A DNA stretch of 52,957 bases, counting the filler, from a bacterium (GTDB lineage Bacteria; CLD3; SB21): NCBI GenBank assembly GCA_013360215.1. It is 4 parts of 4 records of this genome, joined end to end, with 100 filler letters (N's around TTAATTAATTAA, not from the genome) between each part and the next. Parts side by side here need not be neighbours in the genome. Positions count along the whole stretch, not along the records: positions 12,065 to 23,456 come from JABWCP010000048.1; 3 more parts are not named here. One strand, given 5' to 3'. This document shows, piece by piece, positions 8,517 through 26,770 of the stretch. Each line of letters starts with the position of its first letter. Within the stretch, counting starts at the first letter, position 1. Below the pieces are notes generated by a model. That model ran no database searches and was not told the origin of the DNA. It worked only from the letters and a program-made list of their open reading frames with translations. The translations under genes and the position numbers were made by a program.

Positions 8517-8546
8517 TTTTTAAAACTATAAATTGTTAGAAGCACC

Positions 8547-8909: not shown

Positions 8910-8940
8910 TAAAAAACACATCTATAGATGGTGAGGCGTG

Positions 8941-9477: not shown

Positions 9478-9500
9478 CGATAACCAGGCAAAGAGCGATC

Positions 9501-9749
9501 ATGAAATTTTTGAAGATTACCCAGGTTCGCAGTACCAACGGCGCCATTTTCGCACACCGCGATACCGTGCGCACGCTCGGACTACGTAAAATCGGCCAAA
9601 CCGTTTACCACAACGATACACCGCAGGTTCGCGGTATGGTTAATCTTGTGAAGTATATGGTTTCCTGTGAAGCCGTTGATAAAAAACCGGAAGCTGTGAA
9701 AAAAGAAAAAAAGACCGGTTATAAAGTTACCAAAGCGAAAAAAGCGTAA
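9501..9749 (+). CDS. rpmD: 50S ribosomal protein L30 with Lys-rich C-terminal tail
   Basis: LKITQVRS...TVRTLGLRKI..TV...DTPQVRGMV; lies between rpsE and rplO. Confidence 0.96.
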   Translation: MKFLKITQVRSTNGAIFAHRDTVRTLGLRKIGQTVYHNDTPQVRGMVNLVKYMVSCEAVDKKPEAVKKEKKTGYKVTKAKKA

Positions 9750-9774
9750 ACAATTTTAGTCAAAGAGGATTGCG

Positions 9775-10260
9775 ATGAATCTCAGTAATTTAACGCCCGC
9801 CAAAGGCTCCCGCCGTAAAATGAAACGTATCGGTCGTGGTGAAGGCTCCGGCCACGGCGGCACATCCACACGCGGTAACAAAGGGCAAAAGTCGCGTTCC
9901 GGTCTTAACCGCCTTGCCGGTTTTGAAGGCGGACAGATGCCTTTGCAACGTCGTCTCCCTAAATATGGTTTTACCAATATTTTCCGTGTCGAATTTCAGA
10001 CTGTTAATTTGACCGATCTTGCCGAATTGGATAACAAACGCGTAGACGGCGCAACGTTGCAAGCGGCAGGCTTGATCAAAAAGAAAAGCGCTCCGGTAAA
10101 ACTTTTAGGAACCGGTGAAGTGACCAAAGCGTTTGAAGTCGAAGTGCATGCGATCAGTGCAACGGCAAAAGAAAAAATCGAAAAAGCCGGCGGCAAAGTG
10201 ACGGTGCTTGGCATCAAAAAAACAGTGTTGGAAAAACGCAAGAAAAAAGCGTCGAAATAG
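9775..10260 (+). CDS. rplO: 50S ribosomal protein L15
   Basis: RIGRGEGSGHG and GFEGGQMPLQRRLPKYGF motifs. Confidence 0.98.
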   Translation: MNLSNLTPAKGSRRKMKRIGRGEGSGHGGTSTRGNKGQKSRSGLNRLAGFEGGQMPLQRRLPKYGFTNIFRVEFQTVNLTDLAELDNKRVDGATLQAAGLIKKKSAPVKLLGTGEVTKAFEVEVHAISATAKEKIEKAGGKVTVLGIKKTVLEKRKKKASK

Positions 10261-10295
10261 CGGTTACTCTTACATAAGCCCAAGAGAATTTCACA

Positions 10296-11627
10296 ATGCT
10301 ACAAACATTTGCGAATGTATTTAAAATTCCGGAATTGCGGAAACGTATCCTCTTTACGCTCGGCGTTTTGCTGATTGAGCGTATTGCGGCGCACATTCCC
10401 GCGCCGGGTATTTATGCGGAAGCGCTCGGACAGTATTTCCGACAGGCGGAAAATACGCTGTTGAGTTTTTATGATTTATTTGCCGGCGGCGGGTTGTCCC
10501 AAGCGACCATCGCAGCGCTTGGCATCATGCCGTACATTAGTACATCCATTATCATCCAACTTCTCGGTACGACCGTGCCTTACCTTCAGCGTTTACAACG
10601 TGAAGGTGAAGAAGGCCGCAAAAAGATCAACCAGCTTACACGCTACGGTACGGTAGCGCTTGCCGCCGTTCAGGCGATCGGCGTTGCAACCTGGCTTTGC
10701 AGCCTCAGTGTAGTGATCGGCAGTCAGGAAGTCAAAGTAGTGCCGGATCAAGGGTTCACTTTTTATCTGATGACGATGGTCACCATGACTACATGTACGA
10801 TGTTTATCATGTGGCTCGGCGAGCAAATCACCGAACGCGGCATCGGAAACGGTATTTCATTGATTATTGCGATCGGTATTTTGGCACGATTCCCTACGGC
10901 GATTATTGACGAAATTACTCAGATTTCGACGGGCAACCGTAATATTATTCTCGAATTGATTTTGGTTACGATTTTACTCGGCATTGTTGCGGCGATTATT
11001 TTTATCACGCAAGGTATCCGTAAAATCCCGGTACAATATGCACGCCGCGTGATCGGTCGTAAGGTATATGGCGGTCAATCCACACATATCCCGATGCGTA
11101 TCAATATTGCGGGTGTTATGCCTATCATCTTTGCGCAGTCCATCATGTTTGTTCCGAATACGGTAGCCACTTTTTTCCCGGGCGATTTTTCGGAGTGGAT
11201 CACAGCGCATTTTTCGATTGATTCGATTACGTACAATTTGTTCTTTCTCATTTTAATTGTCATCTTCACGTATTTCTACACTGCGATTGCGATGAATCCT
11301 GTCGAAGTGGCGGATAATCTCAAGAAGCAAGGTGCGTTTATACCGGGTGTTCGTCCCGGCAAAAAAACGTCGGATTTTATTGATAATATCCTGACGCGCG
11401 TCACCCTTCCGAGTGCCATTTTCCTTGGTGTCATTGCGATATTGCCGTTTTTCGTACGCCATGCAACGGATGTGAGCTATAGCTTCGCGTCGTTTTTTGG
11501 CGGTACGTCGCTTTTGATCGTGGTGGGTGTCGGATTGGATACGATTCAGCAAATCGAATCGCATCTTGTCATGCGCCACTATGACGGTTTCCTTAAATCC
11601 GGTCGTATCCGCGGCCGTCGGGGATAA
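10296..11627 (+). CDS. secY: Preprotein translocase subunit SecY
   Basis: LGIMPYI, WLGEQITERGIGNGISL, FIPGVRPG and GGTSLLIVVGV motifs; multiple TM segments. Confidence 0.99.
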   Translation: MLQTFANVFKIPELRKRILFTLGVLLIERIAAHIPAPGIYAEALGQYFRQAENTLLSFYDLFAGGGLSQATIAALGIMPYISTSIIIQLLGTTVPYLQRLQREGEEGRKKINQLTRYGTVALAAVQAIGVATWLCSLSVVIGSQEVKVVPDQGFTFYLMTMVTMTTCTMFIMWLGEQITERGIGNGISLIIAIGILARFPTAIIDEITQISTGNRNIILELILVTILLGIVAAIIFITQGIRKIPVQYARRVIGRKVYGGQSTHIPMRINIAGVMPIIFAQSIMFVPNTVATFFPGDFSEWITAHFSIDSITYNLFFLILIVIFTYFYTAIAMNPVEVADNLKKQGAFIPGVRPGKKTSDFIDNILTRVTLPSAIFLGVIAILPFFVRHATDVSYSFASFFGGTSLLIVVGVGLDTIQQIESHLVMRHYDGFLKSGRIRGRRG

Positions 11628-11632
11628 TCTGA

Positions 11633-11964
11633 ATGATCCGGCTCAAGTCGGGTGCGGAGATTGATAAAATCCGCGAGAGTTGCCGCATTATCGTAGAAGC
11701 TATGATGGTAGCGGCCAAGATGGTGAAACCCGGATTGCGTTTGATGGATTTGGATGCGGCTATCGAATCGGCTATCAAATCGCGCGGCGGGAAACCGGCG
11801 TTCAAAGGTTATCATGGTTTTCCCAATAATGCTTGCCTTTCGACCGATGATATTGTTGTTCACGGTATAGCCAAACCCGGGGACGTACTGCAGGAAGGTC
11901 AGATACTCGGGGTGGATATCGGTGTTCTCAAAAACGGATTTTACGGTGATTCTGCCGTAACATT
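11633..11964 (+). CDS. map: Type I methionine aminopeptidase, 5' part (cut by contig end)
   Basis: PAFKGYHGFP..AC.S....VVHGI and DIGV..NGFYGDSA motifs; follows secY. Confidence 0.95.
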
Positions 11965-12064
11965 NNNNNNNNNNNNNNNNNNNNNNNNNNNNNNNNNNNN
12001 NNNNNNNNTTAATTAATTAANNNNNNNNNNNNNNNNNNNNNNNNNNNNNNNNNNNNNNNNNNNN
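11965..12064. other. Artificial contig linker
   Basis: N44-TTAATTAATTAA-N44 with stops in all six frames; same structure at three positions. Confidence 0.98.
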
Positions 12065-12147
12065 TACGATCGGTCCGGTGGTCGTCGAACATCTCCGTAA
12101 AATCACCAAACTTCCGCTGGATGTTCATCTTATGATCGTCGAACCCG
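12065..12147 (+). repeat. 83-bp direct repeat, left copy (internal rpe sequence)
   Basis: TACGATCGGTCCGG...ATCGTCGAACCCG is identical to 23374-23456. Confidence 0.97.
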
Positions 12148-12194
12148 AAAAATATATCACCGCATTTCGTGATGCCGACGTAGATTTTCTCTGA
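12065..12194 (+). pseudogene. rpe: Truncated ribulose-phosphate 3-epimerase remnant
   Basis: Reads [42 protein letters not shown] then TGA at 12192-12194, where Rpe normally continues with a GAD..(S/T).H motif. Confidence 0.8.
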
Positions 12195-12308
12195 TTCCAT
12201 CATTGAGATTTCGAAACAGAAGATGCGGGTATGCTGATTAAGAGAATATTCTCAAAGATTTCACTGCTTGCAAACAAATTTGTTCGCAGGTCAAGATAGA
12301 AATTTTAG

Positions 12309-12339
12309 AAAAAAGGCTGTGGAAAATTCCACAGCCTTT
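12309..12339 (-). terminator. Rho-independent terminator for the minus-strand gene cluster
   Basis: Minus strand AAAGGCTGTGGA-attt-TCCACAGCCTTTTTT, about 57 nt downstream of the stop at 12396. Confidence 0.85.
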
Positions 12340-12395
12340 GGTCATCATCACACGGAAGTCCACACCGGAGTTCCCGTGGTACTTTTTTTATCTAA

Positions 12396-14228
12396 CTATT
12401 TAAAAGCATTCTCACATAAAACTTCATAGGGATCCATCACCATGCCGCGTGAACTGCGATACAGCACGCCATATGAGTTTCCCGCATAATCTTGGGTAAA
12501 ATTCATATACTCTACAATACATTTTCCTTCTTCATTTTTGAAAATAACAGCGGCTTGTATGGTGCGGTTCAAAACGATACCCGTGATTTCATTTCTCTGG
12601 ACATACCAGGTTGGATCGGTTTGGATAACTCTGACGACATGGAAACCTTCTGATTTAAGAACGGCCGTCATATTTTGTTCAATCCCTTTATCAGCAGCCT
12701 TTGCTTTGGGTGGAAGTGCATTTTGAATTTTAGATTTCGCGAGAGCGCCTGATAAAGTTTTGTAATTATCCTGACCTTCGGAACAGTCAAGCTCAAACGT
12801 GCCCCATGCAACCTCCTGATCGTTTGCAAAAAGGCCAACTTTGATAGTGTGGTTTCTTGGTGACAATTCACTGAATAATTTTGCAAACTCTGCTGCCACT
12901 TCCGGCCTCTCTGTCTGCTGAGGATCGGGCGTCATTTCAACTTCTAATGTAGTTTCTTGCATCTTGGGATGATCCGACTTGACAATATATTCCCCAGTTT
13001 TGTTTGCCGTCCAAGGCGTTAAAATCCCACCTTCCGCAGGATCGACGTAAACCGCTATGGTAATTTTCGGGCTCATACTACCATATTTGGATAGTTCCTT
13101 GATTGTGCTCTTGAAATACGCCATGGCATAGATATTTTCTCCGGCTGTAAAGGAACTTTGAGCGGTCGCAGATGTTTCTTTTTTCAGCACGATACGTGTT
13201 TTTGAAAACACAATTTTACCACGATTAGTTTTATGAAAGTCGCTAGTGTATAAAACTGAACCCGGTTCTGCGTTGATTTTATCATACGCAGACTGTGCAT
13301 CCTTTCGCAGTTTTTGAATATTGATCTCATCTGGAGTTACCAAAAGCACCGCTTCCGCCATCAACACGGCAATTTCTGCCTCCTGGACAGCCGTTGAAAG
13401 CCCGGTCTTTCCTTTTGCTTTTTCTGCATAAGCCTTTTCAATGTGCGCATTCACATCAGCGATATAATATGTTTTCAGAAATACCTGAAATTTCGGCACA
13501 AATTCTTTGGTCAAAAATGTCACATACGTATCATTTCTAACCTCTTCATCCGTTACCTCTTTTTGAATCCGTCTTAGAATCGAAGGATAATTTAATTTTT
13601 TACATCTATCGTAAAATTCCTGCGCTTCCTCAAGCGTCAGATACGTTGCTTTTCCGTATTGGACCAATTCATCTCCGGTCATCCATGCTGTGTACAAGGC
13701 GTCGGACAGCCCCATATTGGCCTTGCCATCCTCCTCAAGCGACGAAAACTGCTTTTCAAAACCAGCCAGCCGTTTGGTATATGAAGTCAGATTTAAATCG
13801 GGGAATTTTATTTTCGTCTCATCGATTAGAGCCCGCGCCGATTCGATTTTTTCTTTTGCTTTTGAAGCCTGTTGATCAAATGTGGCGCTTGCCAGACGAT
13901 CCTTAAGTAAAGAAAGTTCATTTTCAATTAACTTCAAGCTACGTCCTATCTTCGCAGCAGCCAGAGAATCGTCGCTAATACCGGTTTGATTGTCATCTTT
14001 TTCCGGGTTACTCGACTGGACAGTTTCTACAGTTCCCGAAGCGCCTTTAACCTCTTTTACTACTTCCTTCGCATCTTTTTTTTTCTCCGGTTTCTTTTTT
14101 ATGGCGGCGCCTTCGATTTTCTTTTTGGATAATTGTAAAGACAAGACATGAACTCCGGCTCTTCTAAACACAGGTCTTTCTGCCGCTAAAAGCGAGCTTG
14201 TTAAACACAAGATGATGACCCATTTCAT
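12396..14228 (-). CDS. Hypothetical secreted protein (signal peptide, helical middle, beta-rich C-terminal domains)
   Basis: 610-aa ORF with MKWVIILCLTSSLLA signal peptide; no recognised catalytic motif. Confidence 0.85.
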   Translation of the reverse strand: MKWVIILCLTSSLLAAERPVFRRAGVHVLSLQLSKKKIEGAAIKKKPEKKKDAKEVVKEVKGASGTVETVQSSNPEKDDNQTGISDDSLAAAKIGRSLKLIENELSLLKDRLASATFDQQASKAKEKIESARALIDETKIKFPDLNLTSYTKRLAGFEKQFSSLEEDGKANMGLSDALYTAWMTGDELVQYGKATYLTLEEAQEFYDRCKKLNYPSILRRIQKEVTDEEVRNDTYVTFLTKEFVPKFQVFLKTYYIADVNAHIEKAYAEKAKGKTGLSTAVQEAEIAVLMAEAVLLVTPDEINIQKLRKDAQSAYDKINAEPGSVLYTSDFHKTNRGKIVFSKTRIVLKKETSATAQSSFTAGENIYAMAYFKSTIKELSKYGSMSPKITIAVYVDPAEGGILTPWTANKTGEYIVKSDHPKMQETTLEVEMTPDPQQTERPEVAAEFAKLFSELSPRNHTIKVGLFANDQEVAWGTFELDCSEGQDNYKTLSGALAKSKIQNALPPKAKAADKGIEQNMTAVLKSEGFHVVRVIQTDPTWYVQRNEITGIVLNRTIQAAVIFKNEEGKCIVEYMNFTQDYAGNSYGVLYRSSRGMVMDPYEVLCENAFK

Positions 14229-14269
14229 TTGACTTTTCCTTTCTATGGTGTTTTTAGATAAGAAACCGA

Positions 14270-14860
14270 TTAACGATATTGTGCGTAGAGCATTTCCAAT
14301 CTTACCAAAATAAGCGCAGGATCATTGGAGGGTATCCATATCGGATCCAATTCATGAATCACATCATTACAAGCGTTATAATTTCTCAGGTGAAACAAGC
14401 TATAAGCCTGATGAAGTTTGATATCTGATATGTTTATAGACTTGTCATGCGAAAAAATATACTCAGGATCCCTCCTTCTGACGAATTGCGAAGCTTCAAT
14501 GGCTTGGGTAAAATGATCCTGCCGCCACTTCACAAATACGCTGCCTGCGTAACCGTCCGTTAGCGAATCCGCAGCGACAGATTCAAAAAAGGCCTCAGCC
14601 TCGGGAAAACTATCCATTCGCAACGCCGTCCATCCGAGTCCAACAACGGCCTCTGGCCTTTCTATTTCACTAAAAAGCGCATAGGCTTCACTATATGCTC
14701 TCTTCTCATATTTTTCCCACGCCTCTTCCAACGGACTGATCGGATCCTCACAAGAAAGTATTAACATCAAAAGGATCAGGGCCATGATCGACATAAACGT
14801 TGTGAAGATTAGCCCATCGATGAATGCAGCTTTGTTTTTCGAATCGAAATGAAACGACAT
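14270..14860 (-). CDS. TPR-containing putative lipoprotein
   Basis: Hydrophobic stretch ending LILS-C; AWEKY...YSEAYALF and A..GLGW..LR....EA..FF TPR-like helices; exact start uncertain. Confidence 0.75.
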   Translation of the reverse strand: MSFHFDSKNKAAFIDGLIFTTFMSIMALILLMLILSCEDPISPLEEAWEKYEKRAYSEAYALFSEIERPEAVVGLGWTALRMDSFPEAEAFFESVAADSLTDGYAGSVFVKWRQDHFTQAIEASQFVRRRDPEYIFSHDKSINISDIKLHQAYSLFHLRNYNACNDVIHELDPIWIPSNDPALILVRLEMLYAQYR

Positions 14861-14878
14861 AAGTTTTTCCTTTTTATG

Positions 14879-17800
14879 CTATTTGATGAGTAGCATTTTT
14901 TTGGATATCGTACCCTTGCCGGTTTCCAATCGGTAAAGATAAATTCCACTGCTCACTGGCTCTCCCCGGTTGTTTTTTCCATCCCAAAAAACTTCATGAT
15001 ACCCTGCAGGTTTGTTCTCACTGATCAACGTGGTGATTGTTTGTCCCAGTATATTATATATGACGAGACGTGTTTTCCCGTCTTCAGGCAGACCAAACCG
15101 TATGGTCGTCGAAGGGTTGAATGGATTGGGATAGTTTTGAGTCAATTCGAGTTTTTGAGGTATGATTACTTCAACGGGATCATATACCAGTGCGTACAAA
15201 CCTGATCGATAGATTGTCGCTGCAATTTTTTCATGCTCTGTACTTACATTCATACCGGCATGGACGGATGAGATTTCCTGTATGGATAATTTTTGTGCGT
15301 CAAAACACCCAAACTCCTGCTGTATGAATTGTATGTCTTCCTTGTAATAATTCATCGCCAGCTTCAAGGACACGGCTTCGGTCATGATCACTTCTACCGA
15401 TCGTATATACCGCTTATCCGATTTTATTTCGCGGGATTCCTGAGTCGATAAAAACACATAACCGCCTGATCCGGTGTAATTTTTTAACTGCCTCAATTCA
15501 ACTGACGATGACGTTAGAGTCATCCATCGGTTTTTGGTCAACTCACCAACATCGTAATTTTTAGACACTTCTCCGCGATTCCCGGCAGAATCAGTTCCCG
15601 CAAAATTCAGAGAAAGCACTCCTGCCGATAACATCTTGTGGTCCGTTGAAAAAATCCGGGTACTTCCGGATACGGCCGTTGTTGCTTTATTTGAATTATT
15701 GACTCTAATAACTACAAATGAGAGTCCCTCGTTGCTGGTTCCGTAAATCTCCACCTGATCTTTCAAAATTGTACTTCTCAAAACTCCGATGGACAAGATC
15801 GGCGATATATTTTCGAGCCCAATACCCGACAACGGCAGGCGTATCGGGGAGCCCGCTCCATTATGGAAGATGTTCACTGTGTCGGTCAGAATACCCTCTA
15901 CAAGCGGTTTAAATCTGATAGTGAGTATGAGTGAATCGGAAGTAATCGTGACAGGAAGAACCCATGGAAGAATTTTAAAATGTGTCCCTTTCTCCAAAGA
16001 AATTGCGGTTACGGACACAGGACTCTGCGGCGCTTTGATCGTAACGGATGCAGATGAACTGTCTCCGATACGAGCATCGCTAAAACTGCCAATCGCTCCG
16101 GTTGAAAGAACTCGGTTTACTCCGGTGCCGGTGATATAAACATCCAGTTTCCTCACATCGTAGGTTGCGCGTATCGTATCAATGAAATTTCCGATAGCCG
16201 TAGGCTTAAACTTGATGAAACCTAACAGAGTATCAGGATGTAAAATATCCAGTGTATCGATGGACGGTCCGATAAATTGAAAGGGCGTACTATGCAAAAC
16301 TGAAAAACCCGAAATCAGACTGCCACCTTCCGAATAAAAACGTATCGGCAAAATCAGGCTGTCCCCGATATGAACATTTCCCATCGGAAAAAACGCATCC
16401 GGCGAATGATGTTTTGCAAATAAATCAGCCGTTGCCGTGACGTCGATCCGGTTTGAAAAAACGGACGAGTTCGCTGCACTGTCTTGTATCGCCGTAAACG
16501 TATGGCCAACGTGCACTTCGCCTGTATGAAAAGCCCAATCACCGGAAGGCGTGGCCGTGGTCGCACCAGCATAATATCTCGCCTGTGTCAGACCTGTACT
16601 ATCCCTGAAAACTTCGATTTTAGCATTAGGCGCCGACTTACCCCAGATTGTTCCTGAAGTCAGGCCACCCCAAATTCTGGGAGGTTGAATCCCTTTTTGA
16701 GAACCTGCATCTACTTTGAGGATACCGCCGTTGACATTTTTAAAAATTAAATTCTGACTCCAGCGGATGCTGTCTGATTCAGCATCTTCCAAATACATTC
16801 CGTAAAACCCGTTATACGCGATCGTGTTATTATTGACCGTAACACGGGAGCATCTAAAGTTTATTAAAACACCAGCTCCATCATTGCTTTGCGCACCGAT
16901 TCCGTTTGAGTCTGTACCTATTAAATTATTCTGAATCAAAACTCCCGATGACCGGTTTATCGTGATCCCATGCCCGCTACTTCCGCCTATGACGTTGTTG
17001 GTGAGTACAGTATTCTTAGACGAATCAATAAACACGCCTGTACCCCCGAAAGCGGCACTGCGAATAGCATTTCCATTTTTCCCAAGCCCTATATAATTGC
17101 CGGATACCCAATTGGTGTCAGAATGGGCGAAGAACCCAAGTTGAATATTGATGAGGCCTCCGACGATATAATTTCTACCATTCGGACTACCATTCCCGAT
17201 TCTATTATGCCTGCCGTAGATATTGATTCCTCGATCGAAACCATAAGAAGCCGTTCCGTTGATATCCGTTCCGATCAAATTGGATTCGATGATATTGGAG
17301 TCAGCGTTTAATGAAATGCCTGATCCCAGTGTAACTTGACCTGCAAATACGTTATTTCGAATGATCCCACCGGATCCGGATTGGAATAGGCCACTTGCGT
17401 TGGCTTTCAATGTCGTTCCGTCGGCAGCCAGGCCGATCACGTTGCAATTTAACGTAAAGTTTTTTCCTGAATTGACAATCGCAGAACTCATCATGCCCGT
17501 AAAATAATTAACGCCTGACGCTGTCCCGTCGCCGACGGTGAGGTTATCGGAGGAATTGGAAATTCCCGAATTCCCTGCAAACGAAGTACTTCCGTTGGCG
17601 CCTAATCCAAAATAATTTCCATAAATCATATTGTTTGCAGACGTGGATGTTATGTTGACTCCGTCCGTGCTTGCCCAAAAGATATTCCGCCCTCCGGGCG
17701 TTCCGTTACCGATTTGAGTAAATGATCCACCGGTTATCCCTATGCCAAAGCTCACATTGCCAGGAGCATTACCTGTGGAATCCGTACCAAAATAGTTTCC

Positions 17801-18796
17801 AAGAAAGCTACAGTGATGAGAAAACATCATATCAACTGCATTTGCAGCATATCCGAAAATATTTCGCCCGGCCGTTGTGCCATTACCAATCTGAGTATAA
17901 TTGCCGGGATCAATCGTAATTGCACCGAATGGCGGTTTAGCGGGTGTTTTTCCGTCCGGATAGAGGCCAAAAAAATTTCCGGCAACAAACGTGCTGTCTC
18001 CAATTAAATACACCGGTGTTGTATAAGAACCAATCACATTCCTTCCGGCGTAGGTTCCATCACCGATTTTGTTGGCATTCCCATATACGAACAAGGCCGA
18101 GTTACCATAAACGGTATCGATTATTGCAGCGTTTGCCGAATTGAAACCAAATTTGTTTCCGACGATCAGACTCCCCCTACCGGTATTTTCTGCAAAACCT
18201 GTTCCTAACCTGATGTCGGTGAACTGGCTTGCGGCAAAACGATTGCCGCGAATCGTATGATAACCAGCCGAAGCGTCATCAACCCCCATAAAATTCGTCA
18301 CAACATCGTCACCGGAAGTCACACCAAATTGGTTATTGAGGATAGATGCCCCGGATTGAAGCAGGAAGATGGCAATATTACATCCGGTAAAAATATTGGC
18401 AGAGATGATAACATTTGGCGCTTGTACACAGACTGCAAACCGAGCCGCTGTAAAATTAAAACGGGTTATCGTGGTGTTTGCTGCTTTTACGGTAAAAATC
18501 GTATCTAATGACGGTTGATCGGATGTAAGCGTTATCGCATATCCATACCCGTCTATAAAAACTTCATCCGTTATGGAGATCGCACCTGCAGTGAGTTTCA
18601 AAGTATCCCCAACCGCAAAAAGAATATTATCTGGTCCCGGGTTGATATTGGCCAGATAAACAGCTTTTCGCAGAGAACCGATCGAACCGGGTGCAAGACT
18701 ATCACCGAAATTGGTGACAAAAAACGTGTCGGCATAAATCCCAGAATGCCCGGCTACAAAAAGAATAAAAATGTACAGCCGCCCTAAACAATTCAT
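14879..18796 (-). CDS. Large secreted right-handed parallel beta-helix protein with Ig-like domains and C-terminal FlgD-Ig/T9SS-type sorting domain
   Basis: N-terminal VTNFGDS..GSLRKAV..AN..PGPD.I.F; repeated GN.(F/I)G...DG / IG.GT..GRN units; two F.P...G...DT Ig-like segments; C-terminal QNYPNPFNPSTTIRFGLP...WDGKN..G..VSSGIYLYRL...KMLLIK; ATG 18796 follows GGAGG. Confidence 0.9.
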   Translation of the reverse strand: MNCLGRLYIFILFVAGHSGIYADTFFVTNFGDSLAPGSIGSLRKAVYLANINPGPDNILFAVGDTLKLTAGAISITDEVFIDGYGYAITLTSDQPSLDTIFTVKAANTTITRFNFTAARFAVCVQAPNVIISANIFTGCNIAIFLLQSGASILNNQFGVTSGDDVVTNFMGVDDASAGYHTIRGNRFAASQFTDIRLGTGFAENTGRGSLIVGNKFGFNSANAAIIDTVYGNSALFVYGNANKIGDGTYAGRNVIGSYTTPVYLIGDSTFVAGNFFGLYPDGKTPAKPPFGAITIDPGNYTQIGNGTTAGRNIFGYAANAVDMMFSHHCSFLGNYFGTDSTGNAPGNVSFGIGITGGSFTQIGNGTPGGRNIFWASTDGVNITSTSANNMIYGNYFGLGANGSTSFAGNSGISNSSDNLTVGDGTASGVNYFTGMMSSAIVNSGKNFTLNCNVIGLAADGTTLKANASGLFQSGSGGIIRNNVFAGQVTLGSGISLNADSNIIESNLIGTDINGTASYGFDRGINIYGRHNRIGNGSPNGRNYIVGGLINIQLGFFAHSDTNWVSGNYIGLGKNGNAIRSAAFGGTGVFIDSSKNTVLTNNVIGGSSGHGITINRSSGVLIQNNLIGTDSNGIGAQSNDGAGVLINFRCSRVTVNNNTIAYNGFYGMYLEDAESDSIRWSQNLIFKNVNGGILKVDAGSQKGIQPPRIWGGLTSGTIWGKSAPNAKIEVFRDSTGLTQARYYAGATTATPSGDWAFHTGEVHVGHTFTAIQDSAANSSVFSNRIDVTATADLFAKHHSPDAFFPMGNVHIGDSLILPIRFYSEGGSLISGFSVLHSTPFQFIGPSIDTLDILHPDTLLGFIKFKPTAIGNFIDTIRATYDVRKLDVYITGTGVNRVLSTGAIGSFSDARIGDSSSASVTIKAPQSPVSVTAISLEKGTHFKILPWVLPVTITSDSLILTIRFKPLVEGILTDTVNIFHNGAGSPIRLPLSGIGLENISPILSIGVLRSTILKDQVEIYGTSNEGLSFVVIRVNNSNKATTAVSGSTRIFSTDHKMLSAGVLSLNFAGTDSAGNRGEVSKNYDVGELTKNRWMTLTSSSVELRQLKNYTGSGGYVFLSTQESREIKSDKRYIRSVEVIMTEAVSLKLAMNYYKEDIQFIQQEFGCFDAQKLSIQEISSVHAGMNVSTEHEKIAATIYRSGLYALVYDPVEVIIPQKLELTQNYPNPFNPSTTIRFGLPEDGKTRLVIYNILGQTITTLISENKPAGYHEVFWDGKNNRGEPVSSGIYLYRLETGKGTISKKMLLIK

Positions 18797-18944
18797 AACT
18801 TCCTCCACCTTGTGATGATATCAAACACATTCAAGGTAGATAGAAATCGAGATGAGCTCTAACAGCCAGCGTTCAAAAACTGACACTCTGGTTGCATCAT
18901 AGTGCAAACTGTTGTTTTATAAGAAAATTGTGGGGGCAGTAAGA

Positions 18945-21900
18945 TTAGAATTCTGAAGGATTTTTACCAAATTCCTCACGAAAACATTTGGTAAAGTAGG
19001 ATAAATTATTAAAACCGACGTCAAATGCCACTTGGGAAACGTTACCGGCGTTCTTTTCGAGCATAATTTTTGCCTTTTTGAGGCGCCACTTCCGGATAGT
19101 ATCGGTTGGGTTCATACCGGTCAGCGCGATCATTTTTCTGTAAAGTTGCGACCGGCTCATCAGGAGTTGTGCGGCCATATCCTCAACGTTAAAATCCGGA
19201 TCAGTAATATTTTCTTCCAAAACTTCCTGAACACGGCTCATAAACAAATCATTTACATTTTTTACATCATAGATCGCTTGTCCGGAAAAGAACGTTTTGC
19301 TGTATTTTTCGATGAGCGTCTCACGAAGGCGGATGCAATTATTGATCCGGGTCTTTAGTTCGCGCACATTGAATGGTTTGACAAGATAGTCATCGGCACC
19401 GGTTTCCAGTCCCTCTATTTTATTATCTTCAGACGCCTTAGCCGTCAATAAAATCACTGGAATATGATTGGTTCGCATATCCTTTTTGAGTTCACGCGAA
19501 AGCGCTACGCCGTCTTTTTTGGGCATCATAATATCACTGATGATCAGATCAGGCACGAGCGAAACAGCTTTATCAAACCCCTCGACGCCGTCACGAGCTT
19601 CGGAGATTTGAAATTCTCCGGAAAGATGTTCTTTGATGTAATCGCGGACGTCTGGATGATCCTCCACGATCAAAATAGTTTTCCCCCGATATTCAGAGTT
19701 CGTATCACTTACCACATTATCGTCCGACCAATCCGCCTCGGCGTCCCATTTGACGGTTCGATCTGCTTCGATTGATTTCTCTTCATCAGGCCATACTTCC
19801 GGATTCAACGGCAGGTGCAGCGTAAAAGTTGTGCCCCGATGCAACTGACTCACGACTGTCAGGCGACCGTGATGCAGTTCAGACAATTGCTTGGCAAGGG
19901 CCAGACCAATACCTGTTCCAGGATACTCGCGCATTTCTGAAGAATCCACCTGATAAAAACGGTCGAAAATTTTTGTTATATCAGATTCCGAAATTCCAAC
20001 GCCTGTATCGGAAACGTTGATCTGAATATGATCGGAGTCGCGCTGAACAGAGACACGTACTTCTCCTTTTTGAGTAAACTTGATCGCATTGGAAATCAAA
20101 TTAAATAAAATTTTTTCTAAAAATTCACGGTCACGGTAAAATTCCGGCAGATTGTCCTCAAGTTTTAATTTCAGTTCAATGCCTTTGCGGTCAGCCAGCG
20201 AAGAAAACGCATGTACCACTCCTTTCATAAAATTCAAGTCACCGAGGCACGCGTTGGGTTTCAGCTGATGATTTTCAATTTTAGATATGTCCAGCAGCTG
20301 ATTGACAAGCCGGAGCAATCTTTTGCCATTGCGCAAAACCATATCCGCCATGGGCCATGCGGAAGGTCCGGACCTGAGTTCCTCCAACGGCCCGAGAATC
20401 AGCGTCAAGGGGGTTCGAAATTCATGTGAAATATTAGCAAAGAATCTGGATTTGATCTCGTCCATTTCTTCCAGTTTTTTGGCTTGCTCCTGAAGTTGAC
20501 GTGTTCGCACCTCGACAATCCGTTCTAATTCTGCTTTTTCAGCAAGTATTTTTCTGGATCGAAATTGCACGCCACCCCACCAAGTTAAACCCAGCAAAGT
20601 CACATAAAGTAAATATGCCCACCACGTGCGATACCACGGAGGAAGCACTGTAAAACGGACGTGGCTATCCTGGCTAACGTGCCCTAATACATTGCGGCTG
20701 CGAACTGAAAAAACATACGTACCTTCGTAAAGATTGGAATATTCTTTTGTGTTTTCTTTTGACCAGATTGACCACCCTTTATCGGTGCTTAATTTATATT
20801 GAAATTCCGTTTCTTTTTCATCCACAAATGAAGTCGAACCATACTCAATACGAACCTGCGTCTGATCATATCCCAACGTGAGATTGTCGGGAATCGCATT
20901 CCCTTGAAATAAAACCGAGTCGCGCCCAATCCCAAAAAAAGAGATAACGGTCGAATGTGACGGAAAAACATGTTTCAGTTTTTGATCATATCGAATAACA
21001 CCACTCGTCGTTGAAAACCAAATGACGCTATCGCGATCCCTAAGCACATAGTTGAGGGCTGATCGTTTGGCCAGCAGGGCTATTCGACTAAATGTCTGAC
21101 TATCCCATTGCATTGTGGCGGCAACTTGTTTTCCACGAAATAACTTTGTCGGTGTGCTCACCCAAATATCGCCGAGCATATCCGTAATGGCATACGTGAT
21201 CGGCTCCGATTCATTCCAAAGCCGTGTATCACGTACAAAACTTGATTGAACAGTATCATAGCTGAAAATTCCTGCCCTGCAGGCAATCCAGGCGGATGCT
21301 CCCCCGCCGATAATTTCGAGATTTTTATTTTCCGACGAAAGATTTTGACCAACGGATACGATTGTTTCAGAATTCAAATCCATGTTTATGATTTCGTTTG
21401 CGCCCGATCTTATCCAAAATTTACCGGGAGTACCTTTGAAGATTTGAAAAATACGCCCTTTCAAAGCGGGAACGACATTTTTTATTTGCTTTGACTTGAT
21501 ATCAATAATACAAAGGCCGTTATTTTTTCCTAATAACCAGCGGCCATTCTCAAGCTCACAATAACTGTAAGCGTTGACTTCAGCATCCCACGTTGTAACT
21601 TTGTTTGAAGCATCGAAAATCTTAAGGCCATTTACAGTCCCCAATAAATGGATCTCACCGATCGGTACCGACCAATACACGGCACCGATCCCAAATGCTT
21701 GCGTATGATTTTTATGAAGTTCATAGAGGTCATTACCGGTGCCGATAAATAAATTATCGCCTTTACGAAAAATGCAATTGACCCCGCTTTTGAGTCCTTG
21801 TTCTTTTTGTAAAAAACGAAAAGACGACAATTCAATTTTATTGACCCCATCCTCCGTCATCACCCACAAATTCCCTTCTTGATCTTCCAAAACACCATTA

Positions 21901-22757
21901 CATGCGTTTGCAGAAAGGCCCTCTTTTTCTGTGATTTCATCGACGACTTGCAGTTGATCATTCAGAATAACCAATCCGCTTGTAAACGAGCAGAAAGCAA
22001 ATCCGCCATGTTTCAACCGGATACCGCTGTGAATATACTTAAGAGGATAAATCGGCCGGATATCGCCTTTATCCCATAAAATTAACCCTTTTTCGTGCGA
22101 GCCAATCAGGGCACGGTTACTGTCGAACCGGAAAACGCCATAAGTGCCGTCTTTTTTCGAATATTTTGAAAATGGAGCTTCGACGATGGAGTCGCCCGCT
22201 AGTTCAAAAATCGCATATTGCTTCTGTTCGTCCCTTCCTGTGATTGTTATTTTCCCGCCGTTATAATACAAAACGCCAAAACTTTTTTTACCAGCTGCGA
22301 TAGTAGTAAACGTTTGATTTTTCCATCGGTAGATACCCGACCGGCATACAAAATATACCGCTGAATCTATAACTGCGACTGAACGTACGCCCCCTGCAAT
22401 AGCACCTGAAGGAAGTTTATCGAGTAAAGACACCCTTCGGGGTTTTCCATTGGTAAATTCGATATATCCCAAATCGTTCGGTCCATCGTAATATAATTTA
22501 CCCTGAGCATCAAATTCCGTCGCACGAATCGGACCGCCGCTGATTTCAAATTCGTAACGCCATGTCACACCATCATAGGAATAGAATGCATTTCCATTGG
22601 AAAGGTATAAAATACCTGACGGGGCTTGTACGATTTGCCAGTTTTGGGGATGAGTGCCTGGATGGTAAACTGTGATCTTTGGAGCTATGGTCTGACCTGA
22701 TACTAATCCGAAACGAACTAGTAAAAAAAGTAAAAATGTTTTTTTGAGATTTTTCAA
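18945..22757 (-). CDS. Hybrid two-component sensor kinase/response regulator/AraC HTH (HTCS)
   Basis: Signal peptide, beta-propeller repeats (ED.EGNLWV), Y_Y_Y (YSNLYEGTYVFSVR), TM (PPWYRTWWAY), HisKA (FFANISHEFRTPL), HATPase (NLISNAIKFT, GTGIGL), REC (IISDIMMP, LLTAK, KPF) and AraC HTH (MSRSQLYRK, VGFNNLSYFTKCF). Confidence 0.95.
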   Translation of the reverse strand: MKNLKKTFLLFLLVRFGLVSGQTIAPKITVYHPGTHPQNWQIVQAPSGILYLSNGNAFYSYDGVTWRYEFEISGGPIRATEFDAQGKLYYDGPNDLGYIEFTNGKPRRVSLLDKLPSGAIAGGVRSVAVIDSAVYFVCRSGIYRWKNQTFTTIAAGKKSFGVLYYNGGKITITGRDEQKQYAIFELAGDSIVEAPFSKYSKKDGTYGVFRFDSNRALIGSHEKGLILWDKGDIRPIYPLKYIHSGIRLKHGGFAFCSFTSGLVILNDQLQVVDEITEKEGLSANACNGVLEDQEGNLWVMTEDGVNKIELSSFRFLQKEQGLKSGVNCIFRKGDNLFIGTGNDLYELHKNHTQAFGIGAVYWSVPIGEIHLLGTVNGLKIFDASNKVTTWDAEVNAYSYCELENGRWLLGKNNGLCIIDIKSKQIKNVVPALKGRIFQIFKGTPGKFWIRSGANEIINMDLNSETIVSVGQNLSSENKNLEIIGGGASAWIACRAGIFSYDTVQSSFVRDTRLWNESEPITYAITDMLGDIWVSTPTKLFRGKQVAATMQWDSQTFSRIALLAKRSALNYVLRDRDSVIWFSTTSGVIRYDQKLKHVFPSHSTVISFFGIGRDSVLFQGNAIPDNLTLGYDQTQVRIEYGSTSFVDEKETEFQYKLSTDKGWSIWSKENTKEYSNLYEGTYVFSVRSRNVLGHVSQDSHVRFTVLPPWYRTWWAYLLYVTLLGLTWWGGVQFRSRKILAEKAELERIVEVRTRQLQEQAKKLEEMDEIKSRFFANISHEFRTPLTLILGPLEELRSGPSAWPMADMVLRNGKRLLRLVNQLLDISKIENHQLKPNACLGDLNFMKGVVHAFSSLADRKGIELKLKLEDNLPEFYRDREFLEKILFNLISNAIKFTQKGEVRVSVQRDSDHIQINVSDTGVGISESDITKIFDRFYQVDSSEMREYPGTGIGLALAKQLSELHHGRLTVVSQLHRGTTFTLHLPLNPEVWPDEEKSIEADRTVKWDAEADWSDDNVVSDTNSEYRGKTILIVEDHPDVRDYIKEHLSGEFQISEARDGVEGFDKAVSLVPDLIISDIMMPKKDGVALSRELKKDMRTNHIPVILLTAKASEDNKIEGLETGADDYLVKPFNVRELKTRINNCIRLRETLIEKYSKTFFSGQAIYDVKNVNDLFMSRVQEVLEENITDPDFNVEDMAAQLLMSRSQLYRKMIALTGMNPTDTIRKWRLKKAKIMLEKNAGNVSQVAFDVGFNNLSYFTKCFREEFGKNPSEF

Positions 22758-23183
22758 TAGAGGAGGTTTTCAAATTCAAAAAATTTTTTCATATATAAAT
22801 ACAAATCGATCGCAAAGCAAAATAATTTTCGATGTCCAAATCGGAAAACCCGGATTTTATTGCAACCCCGAATTTTGTGGAATGCTTTGGAGAGGAAAGA
22901 ATTCGAAATTGGACTTAGGTGATGCAGATTAATTTATCGCTTTTTTTTTACTAATCTTTCACCACGTCGGGCGCCAGAGATAACCATTAAGACCAAATTG
23001 ATCCTCAGGCGTTAGCTCAGGGATTTACATACAAATCATCTTTTATAAAGCAGAGGAAGCTCAGAAATCGATCCTACGATCTACTACAATAATGCAATTG
23101 AAAATATCTTGTCGGTATTTACAGCCAAATTTAACCTTCAAACTCTCATCTTTTTTTAGGAAGTTTGGAACACCACTTCCCCG

Positions 23184-23212
23184 TTGCTTATCCCGCGCAA
23201 TATTCATAAAAT
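23184..23212 (+). promoter_or_regulatory. Putative sigma70-type promoter for rpe
   Basis: TTGCTT-17 nt-TAAAAT, ending 30 nt before the rpe ATG. Confidence 0.5.
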
Positions 23213-23242
23213 AGCTTCTGAATAATTAACTGTTTTATATTT

Positions 23243-23456
23243 ATGCCCATCATTGCACCTTCTATTTTATCGGCCGATTTTGCCAATCTTTCGCGGGATA
23301 TTCGCATCGCCGAAGAATCCGGTGCGGATTGGATTCACGTCGATGTGATGGACGGAAGTTTTGTACCTAATATTACGATCGGTCCGGTGGTCGTCGAACA
23401 TCTCCGTAAAATCACCAAACTTCCGCTGGATGTTCATCTTATGATCGTCGAACCCG
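23243..23456 (+). CDS. rpe: Ribulose-phosphate 3-epimerase, 5' part (cut by contig end)
   Basis: [10 protein letters not shown]...[17 protein letters not shown]...PLDVHLMI motifs. Confidence 0.96.
23374..23456 (+). repeat. 83-bp direct repeat, right copy
   Basis: Identical to 12065-12147. Confidence 0.97.
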
Positions 23457-23556
23457 NNNNNNNNNNNNNNNNNNNNNNNNNNNNNNNNNNNNNNNNNNNN
23501 TTAATTAATTAANNNNNNNNNNNNNNNNNNNNNNNNNNNNNNNNNNNNNNNNNNNN
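23457..23556. other. Artificial contig linker
   Basis: N44-TTAATTAATTAA-N44. Confidence 0.98.
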
Positions 23557-24018
23557 ATCACGATCGTGTCTGATAAAAAATGGAATATCAAAAAATATCA
23601 ATGCATTCAATGGCGTTGGCGCGTCAATCAATTTCCTACCGGCGCCAATGAATATGCCAAAGGTAAAACCGATAACGCGGCCAGCCTGTATATCAGTTAT
23701 TACGTGAGTTTTATCGGCATACCGCGCAGTATCAAGTATATTTGGAGTAATACACTTCCGGAATGCGAAACTTTCCGAAAAGATGGTACAGGAAAGGCGA
23801 CGAATGTAGTCGTGGAAAGCGGCACCTCCAAAACCGGCCAATGGATCACGGAAACAATCAATATCTACGAACAATATAAACGCGTATTCGGTGAATATCC
23901 GCCGGATGAAGTCGCCGGTATAGCGATACGTACGGATGCCGATGGCACCAATTCGCGTGCGATCGCCGACTACGATGATATTATTGCCATTCCGTATTGC
24001 GATGGGCCTTGTAAATAA
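23557..24018 (+). CDS. DUF3047-family protein, 3' part
   Basis: W.W.V...P.GA.E....DNAASLY...IKYIWS...VVVESG...GQW.TE..N...GIAI.TDAD.T pattern; frame open to the contig edge. Confidence 0.75.
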   Translation: MTIVSDKKWNIKKYQCIQWRWRVNQFPTGANEYAKGKTDNAASLYISYYVSFIGIPRSIKYIWSNTLPECETFRKDGTGKATNVVVESGTSKTGQWITETINIYEQYKRVFGEYPPDEVAGIAIRTDADGTNSRAIADYDDIIAIPYCDGPCK

Positions 24019-24037
24019 GGACAGTGAAAAATAAAGA

Positions 24038-25084
24038 ATGTTTAAAATACTTAATAATATCACCCACCGGCGCCCTGTTAACTCCAGCACCGAAGTTCGG
24101 ATAACCTACAAGTGTACGCAGCGCTGTCGGCAGTGTGTGATTCCTTTCAAAAATACTCATACGATGACGGTGGACGAATTTGCTCACGTCATGGAAAATC
24201 TGCGCAGTTACGGAGCCTATGTCGGCTTCATATCGGGCGGGGAGACGACGGTCGTGGATGGTTTGCCGGAGATGCTGCTTGAAGCGCATAAAACTTTTCG
24301 TTTTGCGACGACACTTGTGACAGGGCTTTATAATAAATGGGAAAATATAGAGCCGGCTGCACGGATTTGTATGGAAAACGGAATGCATATTCAGACATCG
24401 TTTGACGGTTTGGGGGAGATTGGGGATCATTTGCGCGGATGCAAAGATTTCGAAAAAGTGATTTCCGAAAACATGCGCAGAATAAGTGAGTTGAGACGAG
24501 ATATCCAAAAGAAAAATAAAAAGAAATCTGTACTTTATGCCAATACGGTGATGAGTGATATCAATTTAGATCAGGTCCCCGATATCATCGCGCACGTCAA
24601 ATCTTTAGGATGGAAATCAACAGTCGGAATGTACCATACATTGACTTTTTCGACACGCTACAATGATGATATGGTTTTGCGTCCTGGCGAACGATTAAAT
24701 AAAACCATGGCGTTTTTAAAGCAAAATCCCGACGTGATGAATTTAGATGCTTGGATTGACGGCGTCATTCCTTATGTGGAAGATCCGAATTTAAATTGGT
24801 GCCCGTTTGTAAAAGCACCGTACTTAGCGACACGCACGACGATCATGGAAAACGGCGATGTGCATCTCTGCAAGGGTAATCCGATAGGAAATGTTTTTCG
24901 GCAATCGTTAGGGAAAATTTTCGAAAGTTATGAATACAAACAAAGATTAGATGAATACAGCCGATGCGAAGGTTGCTGGACTACCTGCTATACGCAGCGG
25001 TATCTGTCGGTGCGACCCAAGTCAATCAGTGAGGCTGTTTCAAATATTAAAAAAATCAAACGTAATACGACGGTGGAATTATGA
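24038..25084 (+). CDS. Radical SAM enzyme with C-terminal SPASM/twitch-like Cys cluster
   Basis: CTQRCRQC (CxxxCxxC), ISGGE, SFDG...DHLRG; C-terminal CPF...NGDVHLC...GN...CEGCWTTC. Confidence 0.9.
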   Translation: MFKILNNITHRRPVNSSTEVRITYKCTQRCRQCVIPFKNTHTMTVDEFAHVMENLRSYGAYVGFISGGETTVVDGLPEMLLEAHKTFRFATTLVTGLYNKWENIEPAARICMENGMHIQTSFDGLGEIGDHLRGCKDFEKVISENMRRISELRRDIQKKNKKKSVLYANTVMSDINLDQVPDIIAHVKSLGWKSTVGMYHTLTFSTRYNDDMVLRPGERLNKTMAFLKQNPDVMNLDAWIDGVIPYVEDPNLNWCPFVKAPYLATRTTIMENGDVHLCKGNPIGNVFRQSLGKIFESYEYKQRLDEYSRCEGCWTTCYTQRYLSVRPKSISEAVSNIKKIKRNTTVEL

Positions 25085-25275
25085 TACGTTTTACGAAGCG
25101 TTTTTATTTCGGTATGCCTTTGTCGCTCGCGGGCATACTGATCGCATTCAATTATATCAGTAACTACCGTACCTATGCCGTTGTTCTTTTCTGGACCGGT
25201 ATTATAACCGGTATCGTCGGATGTTACCTCATGTTTAAGGGCATCAAATCGAAAAAAATAAAAATCGAACCCTGA
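25081..25275 (+). CDS. Small two-TM membrane protein
   Basis: 64 aa, two hydrophobic segments; ATGA overlap with the radical SAM gene. Confidence 0.6.
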   Translation: MIRFTKRFYFGMPLSLAGILIAFNYISNYRTYAVVLFWTGIITGIVGCYLMFKGIKSKKIKIEP

Positions 25276-25281
25276 TACGAT

Positions 25282-25554
25282 TTACGATGTAGGTTCGACG
25301 AATCCTTCCGGGCGCGCTGCTGTACCGCTAAAAAGAAACTGCTGAACTTGTTGTTTGAATATTTCATCCGTACGCGGATCCATCAGATTGAGGCGGTATT
25401 CATTCATCACCATTTTGAAATGTTCTTCAAACATTTTCCATGCTTGTTTAGACACCTGCTCATATACCCGTTTGCCGATTTCACCCGGGATCGGCGCTTT
25501 ATCGAGACCTTCGAGTTCCTGATTGAGTTTTATACAGTACACCATGCGTGCCAT
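25282..25554 (-). CDS. yggX: Fe(II)-trafficking / oxidative damage protection protein
   Basis: MARMVYCIKL..E.EGLD..P.PGE.GKR.YE.VSK.AW......M..NEYRL pattern. Confidence 0.9.
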   Translation of the reverse strand: MARMVYCIKLNQELEGLDKAPIPGEIGKRVYEQVSKQAWKMFEEHFKMVMNEYRLNLMDPRTDEIFKQQVQQFLFSGTAARPEGFVEPTS

Positions 25555-25643
25555 AGATCATACTCCGAATTGTTGTTGATATATAAACCAAACGCGCTGA
25601 AGATAGCGGATTTGATAAAAAAAACAAATACTATCGCACGCTT

Positions 25644-26750
25644 ATGAAATCAGTTTCAACCTATGTAAAAAAAACAACCCGGTGGTATACGCGATACCAA
25701 AACGTGATTTCTCCGGTTTCGTTTTTACTCGGATTCGTATGGGATGCTTTTTCTTCCAAACGCATTGATGCCATGGATCAAAATTACCTGCTAATGGGTT
25801 ATTTGCTCATTGCTGGTATTCTATTGCTGTTATTGCACGCCGTAAAAGCTGAAAAAATCAAAACGGGTTTTTGGGTGACGTATCAAAAGCTTCTTCCCTT
25901 GGGTTTTCATTTTTGTTTGGGCAATCTCTACAGCAACCATGTTTATTTTTATTTTCAAAGTGCCGCCGGATTCAAATCATTGGTCTTTATAGCCGGACTC
26001 ATGGTTCTATTGTTAGCCAATGAGTTTTATAAAGAGCGCATCCATCAGTTTTATCTTCAATTTGTGATGTTTTTTTTGGCGGCATTCTCTTTTTTCATTT
26101 TTTTTGTTCCGCTGTTTACTCGTGAATTGGGTTATCGGTCTTTTTTGATCGGAGGATGTATCAGTTTGGCATTTACCATGATGCTAATTTCCGCCGTCGC
26201 GCTTATAGCGAGGGCGCGATACCGTAAGCTCTTGATCAAAAGCGCCGGACTGATGATCGTGATCTATGGGGTTATGAATATATTCTATTTCGCCCGGTGG
26301 ATTCCGCCGGTTCCGCTTGCACTGCGTCATGTGGGTATTTATCACACGATGAAAAAAAAGGACCAACGGTATGAATTGCAATATGAAAAAGCGGAGGCAT
26401 GGGAGTTTTGGCGCACATCGGGGGATGTGTATCATTGGCAACCCGGTGACACGGTAATTTGTTTTGCAGCGATTTTTGCCCCAACCGAAATTCACACCAC
26501 GATACATTACCAGTGGGAGCAATATTTAGAAGACCGTAACGCGTGGGTAATGCAGGATCATCAGAGTCATACTTTGCAAGGCGGGCGTGATGCGGGTTAT
26601 CGTGGCTACTCTCGTAAGGGCGTGATTTCTCCGGGAGCATGGCGCGTCGAAATAACTACGGAGGAAGGACTGTTGATGGGATCTCTCAACTTTCGGGTTG
26701 AACAAGTAACAAAAGAATTTGAAAGAAAATTAGAAACCATTGAATGGTAA
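25644..26750 (+). CDS. Multi-TM membrane protein with C-terminal DUF2914-like domain
   Basis: About 8 hydrophobic segments, then FAAIFAPT...W...GGRD.GYRGYS.K....PG.WRVE..TE.G. Confidence 0.8.
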   Translation: MKSVSTYVKKTTRWYTRYQNVISPVSFLLGFVWDAFSSKRIDAMDQNYLLMGYLLIAGILLLLLHAVKAEKIKTGFWVTYQKLLPLGFHFCLGNLYSNHVYFYFQSAAGFKSLVFIAGLMVLLLANEFYKERIHQFYLQFVMFFLAAFSFFIFFVPLFTRELGYRSFLIGGCISLAFTMMLISAVALIARARYRKLLIKSAGLMIVIYGVMNIFYFARWIPPVPLALRHVGIYHTMKKKDQRYELQYEKAEAWEFWRTSGDVYHWQPGDTVICFAAIFAPTEIHTTIHYQWEQYLEDRNAWVMQDHQSHTLQGGRDAGYRGYSRKGVISPGAWRVEITTEEGLLMGSLNFRVEQVTKEFERKLETIEW

Positions 26751-26770
26751 TATCCATTGAATGGTAATAT
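26737..26770. repeat. Perfect 17-bp tandem duplication
   Basis: CCATTGAATGGTAATAT twice (26737-26753, 26754-26770); the first copy spans the stop codon of the upstream gene. Confidence 0.9.

Follow-up and report, generated by a model that had tools for sequence, protein, structure and literature searches.

The stretch of DNA analyzed here (the window; 52,957 nt) consists of four separate contigs, at positions 1 to 11964, 12065 to 23456, 23557 to 32957, and 33058 to 52957. The linkers between them (11965 to 12064, 23457 to 23556, and 32958 to 33057) are runs of N around TTAATTAATTAA with stops in all six frames; these linkers are artificial and, therefore, so is any feature crossing one of them. 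The second contig (11,392 bp; 43.1% GC) starts and ends inside the housekeeping gene rpe and carries four genes, all on the minus strand, between the two rpe segments (Table 1). A preliminary description had reported the same 83 bp of rpe at both ends of this contig, and this self-overlap was confirmed to be exact, with positions 12065 to 12147 being 100% identical to positions 23374 to 23456. No end overlaps were detected among the remaining contig ends of the window, such that contig 2 alone overlaps itself. Ahead of the right copy is an intact rpe 5′ end, the ATG being at 23243 and the reading frame covering 71 codons before the contig stops (PF00834, E = 2.7e-29). Translation of the left copy gives TIGPVVV...EKYITAFRDADVDFL and then a TGA at 12192 to 12194, which ends the frame at 86 codons; another TGA lies four codons further along. 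One truncated and one intact copy of rpe are, as had been described, present in the arrangement. The promoter proposed for the right copy was not recovered, as a sigma-70-type scan, which is blind to other promoter types, listed none on the plus strand in 22758 to 23242.

Logan contigs (k = 31) of four public sequencing runs from four studies (X1, X5, X10, and X13) were aligned to this contig. Twenty-four runs were listed, with the contig interior being present in 20 runs from 9 studies, mostly of activated sludge; listed runs with next to no words of the segment were uninformative on the occurrence of an empty site. The 83-bp piece belongs to a real repeat, the true extent of which is greater than had been described, reaching up to 314 bp at double depth (positions 23173 to 23456 plus 12148 to 12177, i.e., from 70 bp upstream of rpe through codon 82). 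The same graph was observed in all four runs. In X10, the repeat was a single 314-bp contig with a depth of 223.7 compared to 122.8 for the interior, while the depths of repeat and interior were 43.5 to 47.1 and 22.4 in X1 and 46 and 22.5 in X13. The repeat was entered either from the interior's right end or from a long contig, termed A (45 kb in X1, 35 kb in X10, and 2.3 kb in X5), that does not resemble the window upstream of 23173 and diverges sharply there in X1, X5, and X10. It was left either into the interior's left end or into a second long contig, termed B (12.7 kb in X1 and 60 kb in X10), in which 12177 is followed by letters encoding GADIISVHQE, the normal continuation of Rpe. Branching into the interior or into the true rpe continuation occurred after 12163 in X1 and after 12177 in X10. 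The long contigs were at the depth of the interior (23.9 and 24.2 in X1, 118.2 and 115.2 in X10, and 5.9 versus 7.1 to 7.4 in X5), and the ratios of interior to flank depth across the four runs were 0.93, 1.05, about 1.2, and 0.95.

The doubled depth of the repeat and its four single-depth edges indicated that the duplication is real and that each copy is joined on its outside to single-copy sequence. A comparison of coverage had been suggested as a check of the preliminary description, and it placed the interior at flank depth and showed the repeat to be doubled in X1, X10, and X13. The left junction, comprising the repeat, the decayed tail of rpe, and the 610-aa gene, was independently assembled in 4/4 runs; the segment occurred at a depth of about 1:1 with its flanks in each of these and was also present in other public contigs. 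A search of the window for the two 30-nt loose ends of the flanking contigs, allowing up to 3 mismatches, gave 0 matches, indicating that contigs A and B are not among the four contigs of the window.

The length of the overlap could be traced to the assembly. In X1, the outgoing paths first differ at 12164, with a shared 185-bp contig ending at 12163 and both successors starting at 12134. The window contig starts at 12065, 99 nt before 12164, and ends at 23456, 99 nt after 23357, a base that is A in the window and C in all four Logan runs. The stretch identical in both copies (23358 to 23456 plus 12148 to 12163) amounts to 115 nt. As a unitig with a word length of 99 keeps k letters per branching node, an end overlap of 2 × 99 − 115 = 83 nt is obtained. 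We infer that the 83 bp reflects the word length of the assembler (2k − L, with k = 99 obtained arithmetically and L being the length of the identical stretch) rather than biology. A k of 99 is a common assembler setting, and a closed loop would give an overlap of k at an arbitrary place. A search for contigs carrying the other rpe 5′ end and the rpe 3′ part had also been proposed, and both were found. P0212 is a 71-aa partial Rpe with Arg39 that ends a 174,888-bp contig and is cut at the codon at which the window contig is cut; P0124, a partial Rpe of 176 aa from a contig of 12,662 bp, starts at the window contig's codon (TIGPVVV) and continues as the intact gene. Being cut at these same codons, P0212 and P0124 represent the other in-edge and the other out-edge of the repeat, and, together with the depths and edges of the graph, they place two copies that are both joined to single-copy chromosomal sequence. 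Further public contigs are broken at the same place (P0145, 11,283 bp; P0213, 7,781 bp; P0127; and P0128).

The location of the segment was examined through the encoded proteins. For all four cargo proteins, the longest contig in the public protein collection is one of 913,449 bp. The 220-aa Rpe cluster of the species has 12 members, and the full-length proteins P0126 and P0133, from contigs of 913,449 and 115,399 bp, respectively, both have Ser39. This is the allele physically linked to the right end of the cargo in the window (P0144), while the copy on the A-type contig has Arg39 (P0212). The presence of Ser39 in full-length Rpe indicated that it is the cargo-adjacent copy that forms the start of the intact gene. 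The presence of both the cargo and an intact Ser39 Rpe on a 913,449-bp contig indicated, in turn, that the segment is chromosomal, in the order A-R'1-pseudo-rpe-cargo-R'2-rpe-B, where R'1 and R'2 are the left and right copies of the repeat. Two pairings are permitted by the k = 31 graph, namely, A-R'1-cargo-R'2-B or A-R'-B plus a circle; the depth ratios, the 913,449-bp contig, and the Ser39 allele favor the first. The residue at Rpe position 39 in relatives is His or Arg (P0002, P0003, P0010, and G001), indicating that the functional gene carries an unusual residue in the window strain.

The two copies differ in condition. As had been described, the left copy is Rpe-like up to the TGA at 12192, and a weak likeness to Rpe continued past this codon and through the second TGA (12204 to 12206) to about 12224, some 15 codons past the branch point. 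The PF00834 match scored 47.6 bits when extended to residue 53 (profile position 95) versus 40.5 bits for the first 42 residues, and 16 of 30 nt of the tail were identical to the true rpe continuation (binomial p of 8e-4 to 6e-3). The tail after 12177 alone had no Pfam match, and, when it alone was locally aligned with the species' Rpe in three frames, 1,894 to 1,974 of 2,000 shuffles scored as high or higher. On these comparisons, the likeness of the tail would appear to be only weak and position dependent. The truncated copy of 86 codons is probably a nonfunctional relic, the other copy being intact and encoding the 220-aa Rpe.

Identity between the copies varied among strains. In X13, the copy leading into the cargo had 6 differences in 66 nt (∼9%) relative to the other copy, and the interior had 112 differences in ∼11,270 nt (∼1%) relative to the window. 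The copies were identical across 314 bp in X10 and differed between ∼23215 and ∼23287 in X1, where the second single-depth path was deduced from the depths. The identical part, hence, measured 314 bp in X10, 185 bp in X1, 33 bp in X13, and 115 bp in the window assembly. This patchy identity, which was read from the contigs of the four runs without base-by-base alignment of the copies, fits gene conversion between old direct repeats and explains why some assemblies break at the repeat and others pass through it.

These results were best explained by a linear chromosomal contig that is bounded by a partial duplication of rpe and an assembly break, the duplication being old and patchily homogenized by gene conversion, an explanation to which we would assign a probability of roughly 0.85. 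The genome would then run from A through R'1, the decayed rpe tail with its two stops, a terminator, the four minus-strand genes, and R'2 into the remainder of the intact rpe and B. For de Bruijn assembly at a word length of 99, the 115-nt identical stretch would have been impassable, and the sequence would have been cut 99 nt into it at each end. An old duplication is suggested by the divergence of R'1 from R'2 (∼9% over 66 nt in one strain) and of the tail (∼47%), and the partial identity may have been maintained by gene conversion from the functional copy. There was probably a single origin, in the form of a duplicative insertion or a rearrangement that put the cluster next to rpe, for which a single crossover or a homology-anchored illegitimate join would be a possible route. 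An assembly-graph loop caused by a partial duplication had been listed in the preliminary description as an alternative, and it is this alternative that was supported by the graph, the double depth, and the 2k − L arithmetic.

Several observations weigh against this explanation. No single sequence spanning A-R'1-cargo-R'2-B was seen, and the adjacency of cargo and intact rpe on the 913,449-bp contig was deduced from the matching size and Ser39 rather than read. An 86-aa truncated product was absent from the two closest clusters and from the 68 short Rpe-like proteins listed, and R'1 is, hence, only presumed to lie on the 913,449-bp contig. Equal depth is formally compatible with a one-copy circle. 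The homology of the tail beyond 12177 is weak, adding 7 bits when joined to the rest and not being significant alone, and divergence jumps from 0% to ∼47% at 12177/12178, more abruptly than would be expected from simple erosion of the edge. X1 shows C alone at 23357, at double depth, which we attribute to bubble popping. Finally, the value of k = 99 is purely arithmetic.

The cargo was examined for genes of mobility. No families of recombinases (integrase, excisionase, or transposase), of relaxase or transfer functions, or of replication were detected in the four proteins by Pfam and NCBIfam scans, in agreement with the preliminary description, in which no recombinase had been recognized. The 610-, 196-, 1305-, and 1270-aa proteins are all present as exact sequences in the public protein collection. 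For the beta-helix gene, public collections contain the 1305-aa form and not a 1309-aa form; the GTG at 18808 that starts the longest open reading frame (ORF) is likely to be wrong, as the ATG at 18796 gives a signal-peptide-like start (MNCLGRLYIF...). Atlas searches with the two unnamed proteins matched TPR-like clusters for the 196-aa protein and hypothetical-protein clusters for the 610-aa protein. No tRNA was found within the window. The composition of the segment is ordinary, contig 2 having a GC content of 43.1% versus 41.1 to 47.8% for the other contigs and tetranucleotide correlations (r) of 0.75 to 0.92 with the other three, which correlate among themselves at 0.72 to 0.92. The hairpin at 12312 to 12339 probably terminates transcription in both directions. 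At 12258 and 12276, between the rpe remnant and the terminator, single bases are inserted in strain X13, which fits the noncoding nature of that stretch. The noncoding DNA beside the remnant and the spacer between the regulator gene and rpe were unlike the loci of relatives, save for one 36-nt match to rpe.

Table 1. Features of the second contig of the window, with positions counted along the whole window
Feature	Position	Strand	Basis
Left (R'1-type) copy, rpe codons 44 to 82	12065..12177	+	Same as functional gene until branch point; Logan branching
Decayed tail of truncated rpe, DVDFL*FHH*DFETED, with in-frame TGA at 12192-12194 and 12204-12206	12178..12224	+	PF00834 extension
Strong GC-rich hairpin between rpe remnant and stop of converging 610-aa gene	12312..12339	.	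Fold energy of -22.4 kcal/mol; flanking A run and T run
Exported protein of 610 aa, function unknown	12396..14228	-	No Pfam/NCBIfam family; Atlas, hypothetical-protein clusters only
TPR-like membrane protein or lipoprotein of 196 aa	14270..14860	-	Atlas structural match to TPR clusters, TM 0.76
Right-handed beta-helix protein of 1305 aa with type IX secretion sorting tail	14879..18796	-	Beta_helix, NosD, Por_Secre_tail
Hybrid two-component regulator of 1270 aa: propeller sensor, histidine kinase, receiver, AraC-type DNA-binding domain	18945..22757	-	Family scans
Unique spacer from regulator gene to right repeat copy	22758..23172	.	A contig diverges just before 23173 in X1, X5, and X10
Right (R'2) repeat copy: 70 bp upstream of rpe plus rpe codons 1 to 71	23173..23456	+	Double depth; continues into intact gene in genome
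Copy-separating base: A (Ser39) beside cargo, C (Arg39) on A contig	23357	+	Logan runs; P0144 versus P0212

The position of the cluster was compared with that in relatives. Loci with a homologue of the 610-aa protein were sought in genome contigs and in metagenome contigs (599 and 595 stretches), with at least one being found in each, and the family (14 genomes), order (17), class (19), and phylum (19) of one relative, G001, were searched. There was no genome of the window's species among those searched, the best identities being 77% for Rpe and 60% for the 610-aa protein. G001, the sole cluster-bearing genome among the matches listed, keeps the order of regulator, beta-helix, 196-aa, and 610-aa genes at identities of 71, 45 to 52, 51, and 60%, respectively. 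Conservation of this order in a distant relative indicated that the cluster is an inherited unit and not a recent import. The G001 counterpart of the beta-helix gene with its type IX secretion tail consists of two adjacent ORFs of 1094 and 408 aa (L001, 864 to 5406), the second being the C-terminal part; it may reflect splitting of the gene or a frameshift, or there may truly be two genes.

Downstream of the cluster, G001 has SnoaL-like, SGL-like, and hydrolase genes, and its rpe lies on a different contig after a 278-aa gene. ORFs of 182 and 353 aa come next after the 610-aa homologue in the metagenome fragment; from a by-eye reading of their translations, these look like genes of aromatic amino acid synthesis, and no rpe comes after the homologue there. 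Elsewhere in the window, no match was found to the neighbors of rpe in G001 or to the genes that follow the cluster in L001 and L003. Among the rpe loci of ten relatives (L023 to L032), a same-strand gene of ∼340 aa was directly downstream in 10/10, that of G001 being the FAD-binding subunit of a molybdopterin or CO dehydrogenase. The upstream neighbor varied and was the regulator in none of the ten; in this small phylum (19 genomes), the boundary at the 5′ flank of rpe appears prone to rearrangement. A second 5′ fragment of rpe was detected in 0/19 relatives. The location of the cluster away from rpe in G001 and the absence of a second rpe piece from these relatives indicated a one-off placement of the cluster beside rpe, duplicating the start of the gene, in the lineage of the window.

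The preliminary description had raised the possibility of an integrase-less island in rpe that supplies a promoter and a 5′ end, with the rpe pieces acting as attL and attR and with movement in trans or by homologous recombination. Direct repeats do flank an 11-kb segment, with one truncated and one intact rpe, and the downstream neighbor of the cluster and the upstream neighbor of rpe differ in G001, where the two are apart; the regulator upstream of rpe (0/10) and the second 5′ fragment (0/19) are likewise peculiar to the window among the relatives searched. These neighbor data indicated that an insertion or rearrangement at rpe did occur in the lineage, and a past insertion at rpe is likely. 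An island is, however, improbable. All four proteins lacked a site-specific recombinase of the tyrosine, serine, or DDE type, as they did any excisionase, relaxase, or replication family, and the segment has no tRNA and is of ordinary composition and gene content. The repeat extends to 314 bp and is mosaic across strains, unlike a short fixed att core with element DNA inside it, and what remains of the Rpe likeness is found 3′ of the left copy, where an element that replaces the 5′ end of its target would place its own DNA. Depth was ∼1:1 with the flanks in 4/4 runs and an empty rpe site was not seen in these, although contigs of k = 31 are unable to show one. The gene order, moreover, was kept at 51 to 71% identity in G001. 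A search of ∼8.4 million texts, outside of which lay the subscription journals, found no description of rpe as an island integration site. The proposal of an island was, therefore, not upheld, its sole support being the flanking direct repeats, in the face of the missing recombinase and transfer genes, tRNA, and unusual composition.

A variant on the origin, which we regard as a long shot, is that the cluster entered rpe as DNA that was either circular or anchored at one end, brought along an rpe 5′ fragment of its own, and was integrated through host homologous recombination alone, by which the essential gene was restored. If this were true, repeats of 115 to 314 bp would let RecA loop the cluster out for reentry into the rpe of any relative, and the segment would be an island without a recombinase, with the start of a housekeeping gene as its address.

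The other proposal of the preliminary description was an excised circle. A closed circle, whether an excised element or a small plasmid, would carry the 86-codon truncated rpe, with the chromosome having its own intact gene. The exact end overlap is what such a molecule would produce, contigs of X5, X10, and X13 run from the repeat into the interior's left end (a step back of 11,309 or 11,310 positions), and the k = 31 graph permits the pairing. Nevertheless, the overlap of 83 nt and the positioning of the ends 99 nt from variant bases are those of a unitig cut at a repeat, following 2k − L and not k, and the repeat has edges to long contigs of equal depth. The cargo proteins are on a 913,449-bp contig and share Ser39 with the intact gene there, the depth of the interior is near that of the flanks at the ratios given above, and neither a closed separate molecule nor a gene for replication or mobilization was found. 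A circle is, hence, rejected as very improbable. Equally slight is the chance of a pure misassembly or strain chimera, with a single rpe copy and an artefactual left fragment, as, despite the origin of the sequence in a metagenome bin and the absence of A at 23357 from all four Logan runs, the left junction was present in 4/4 runs from four studies, the depth was doubled in X1, X10, and X13, other public contigs break at the same place, and Ser39 recurs in P0126 and P0133.

The partial duplication with an assembly break is an ordinary feature that is of note mainly as a caution for calls of circularity, and nothing in it opens a new question. Overlapping contig ends are usually taken as a sign of circularity, whereas the overlap here, at 83 nt, is below the word length of the assembler and marks a linear unitig with a piece of a duplicated gene at either end. 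In metagenome bins, screens for circularity should, therefore, require that the overlap equals k and check for other contigs that are cut at the same place. The locus also shows, on a small scale, how an essential gene has survived insertion close by via duplication of its 5′ part, with the dead copy being kept partly identical by gene conversion.

The contig ends resemble other repeat-induced breaks of de Bruijn contigs in lying 99 nt inside a shared stretch, in having sister contigs cut at the same codons, and in overlapping by 2k − L. There is no difference in kind, and the one unusual point is that the repeat of 115 nt is shorter than 2k, such that the ends overlap and mimic a circular contig. 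The locus shares with partial gene duplications that leave a truncated pseudogene and undergo gene conversion the presence of two promoter-proximal copies, one of them truncated with stops, and a mosaic identity. It differs in that the copies are not in tandem and are 11.3 kb apart around a conserved four-gene cluster and in the sharp drop in identity at 12177/12178. The defining feature of SXT/R391 elements is Int, a tyrosine recombinase by which attP is recombined with a nearly identical attB in the 5′ end of prfC (PMC2791158). Insertion in the 5′ part of a housekeeping gene and the presence of an intact gene on one side are common to both, but the segment at rpe has no integrase or transfer genes, its repeat is variable and hundreds of base pairs in length, and its cargo is syntenic in a distant relative. 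In homology-facilitated illegitimate recombination (HFIR), one end, which here would be that in rpe, is joined by homology and the other illegitimately (PMC3240628). Either HFIR or a Campbell-type single crossover could insert DNA beside an anchor and duplicate the target, making them candidates for the origin of the arrangement only; the joints have no readable microhomology with 30 nt of contig A.

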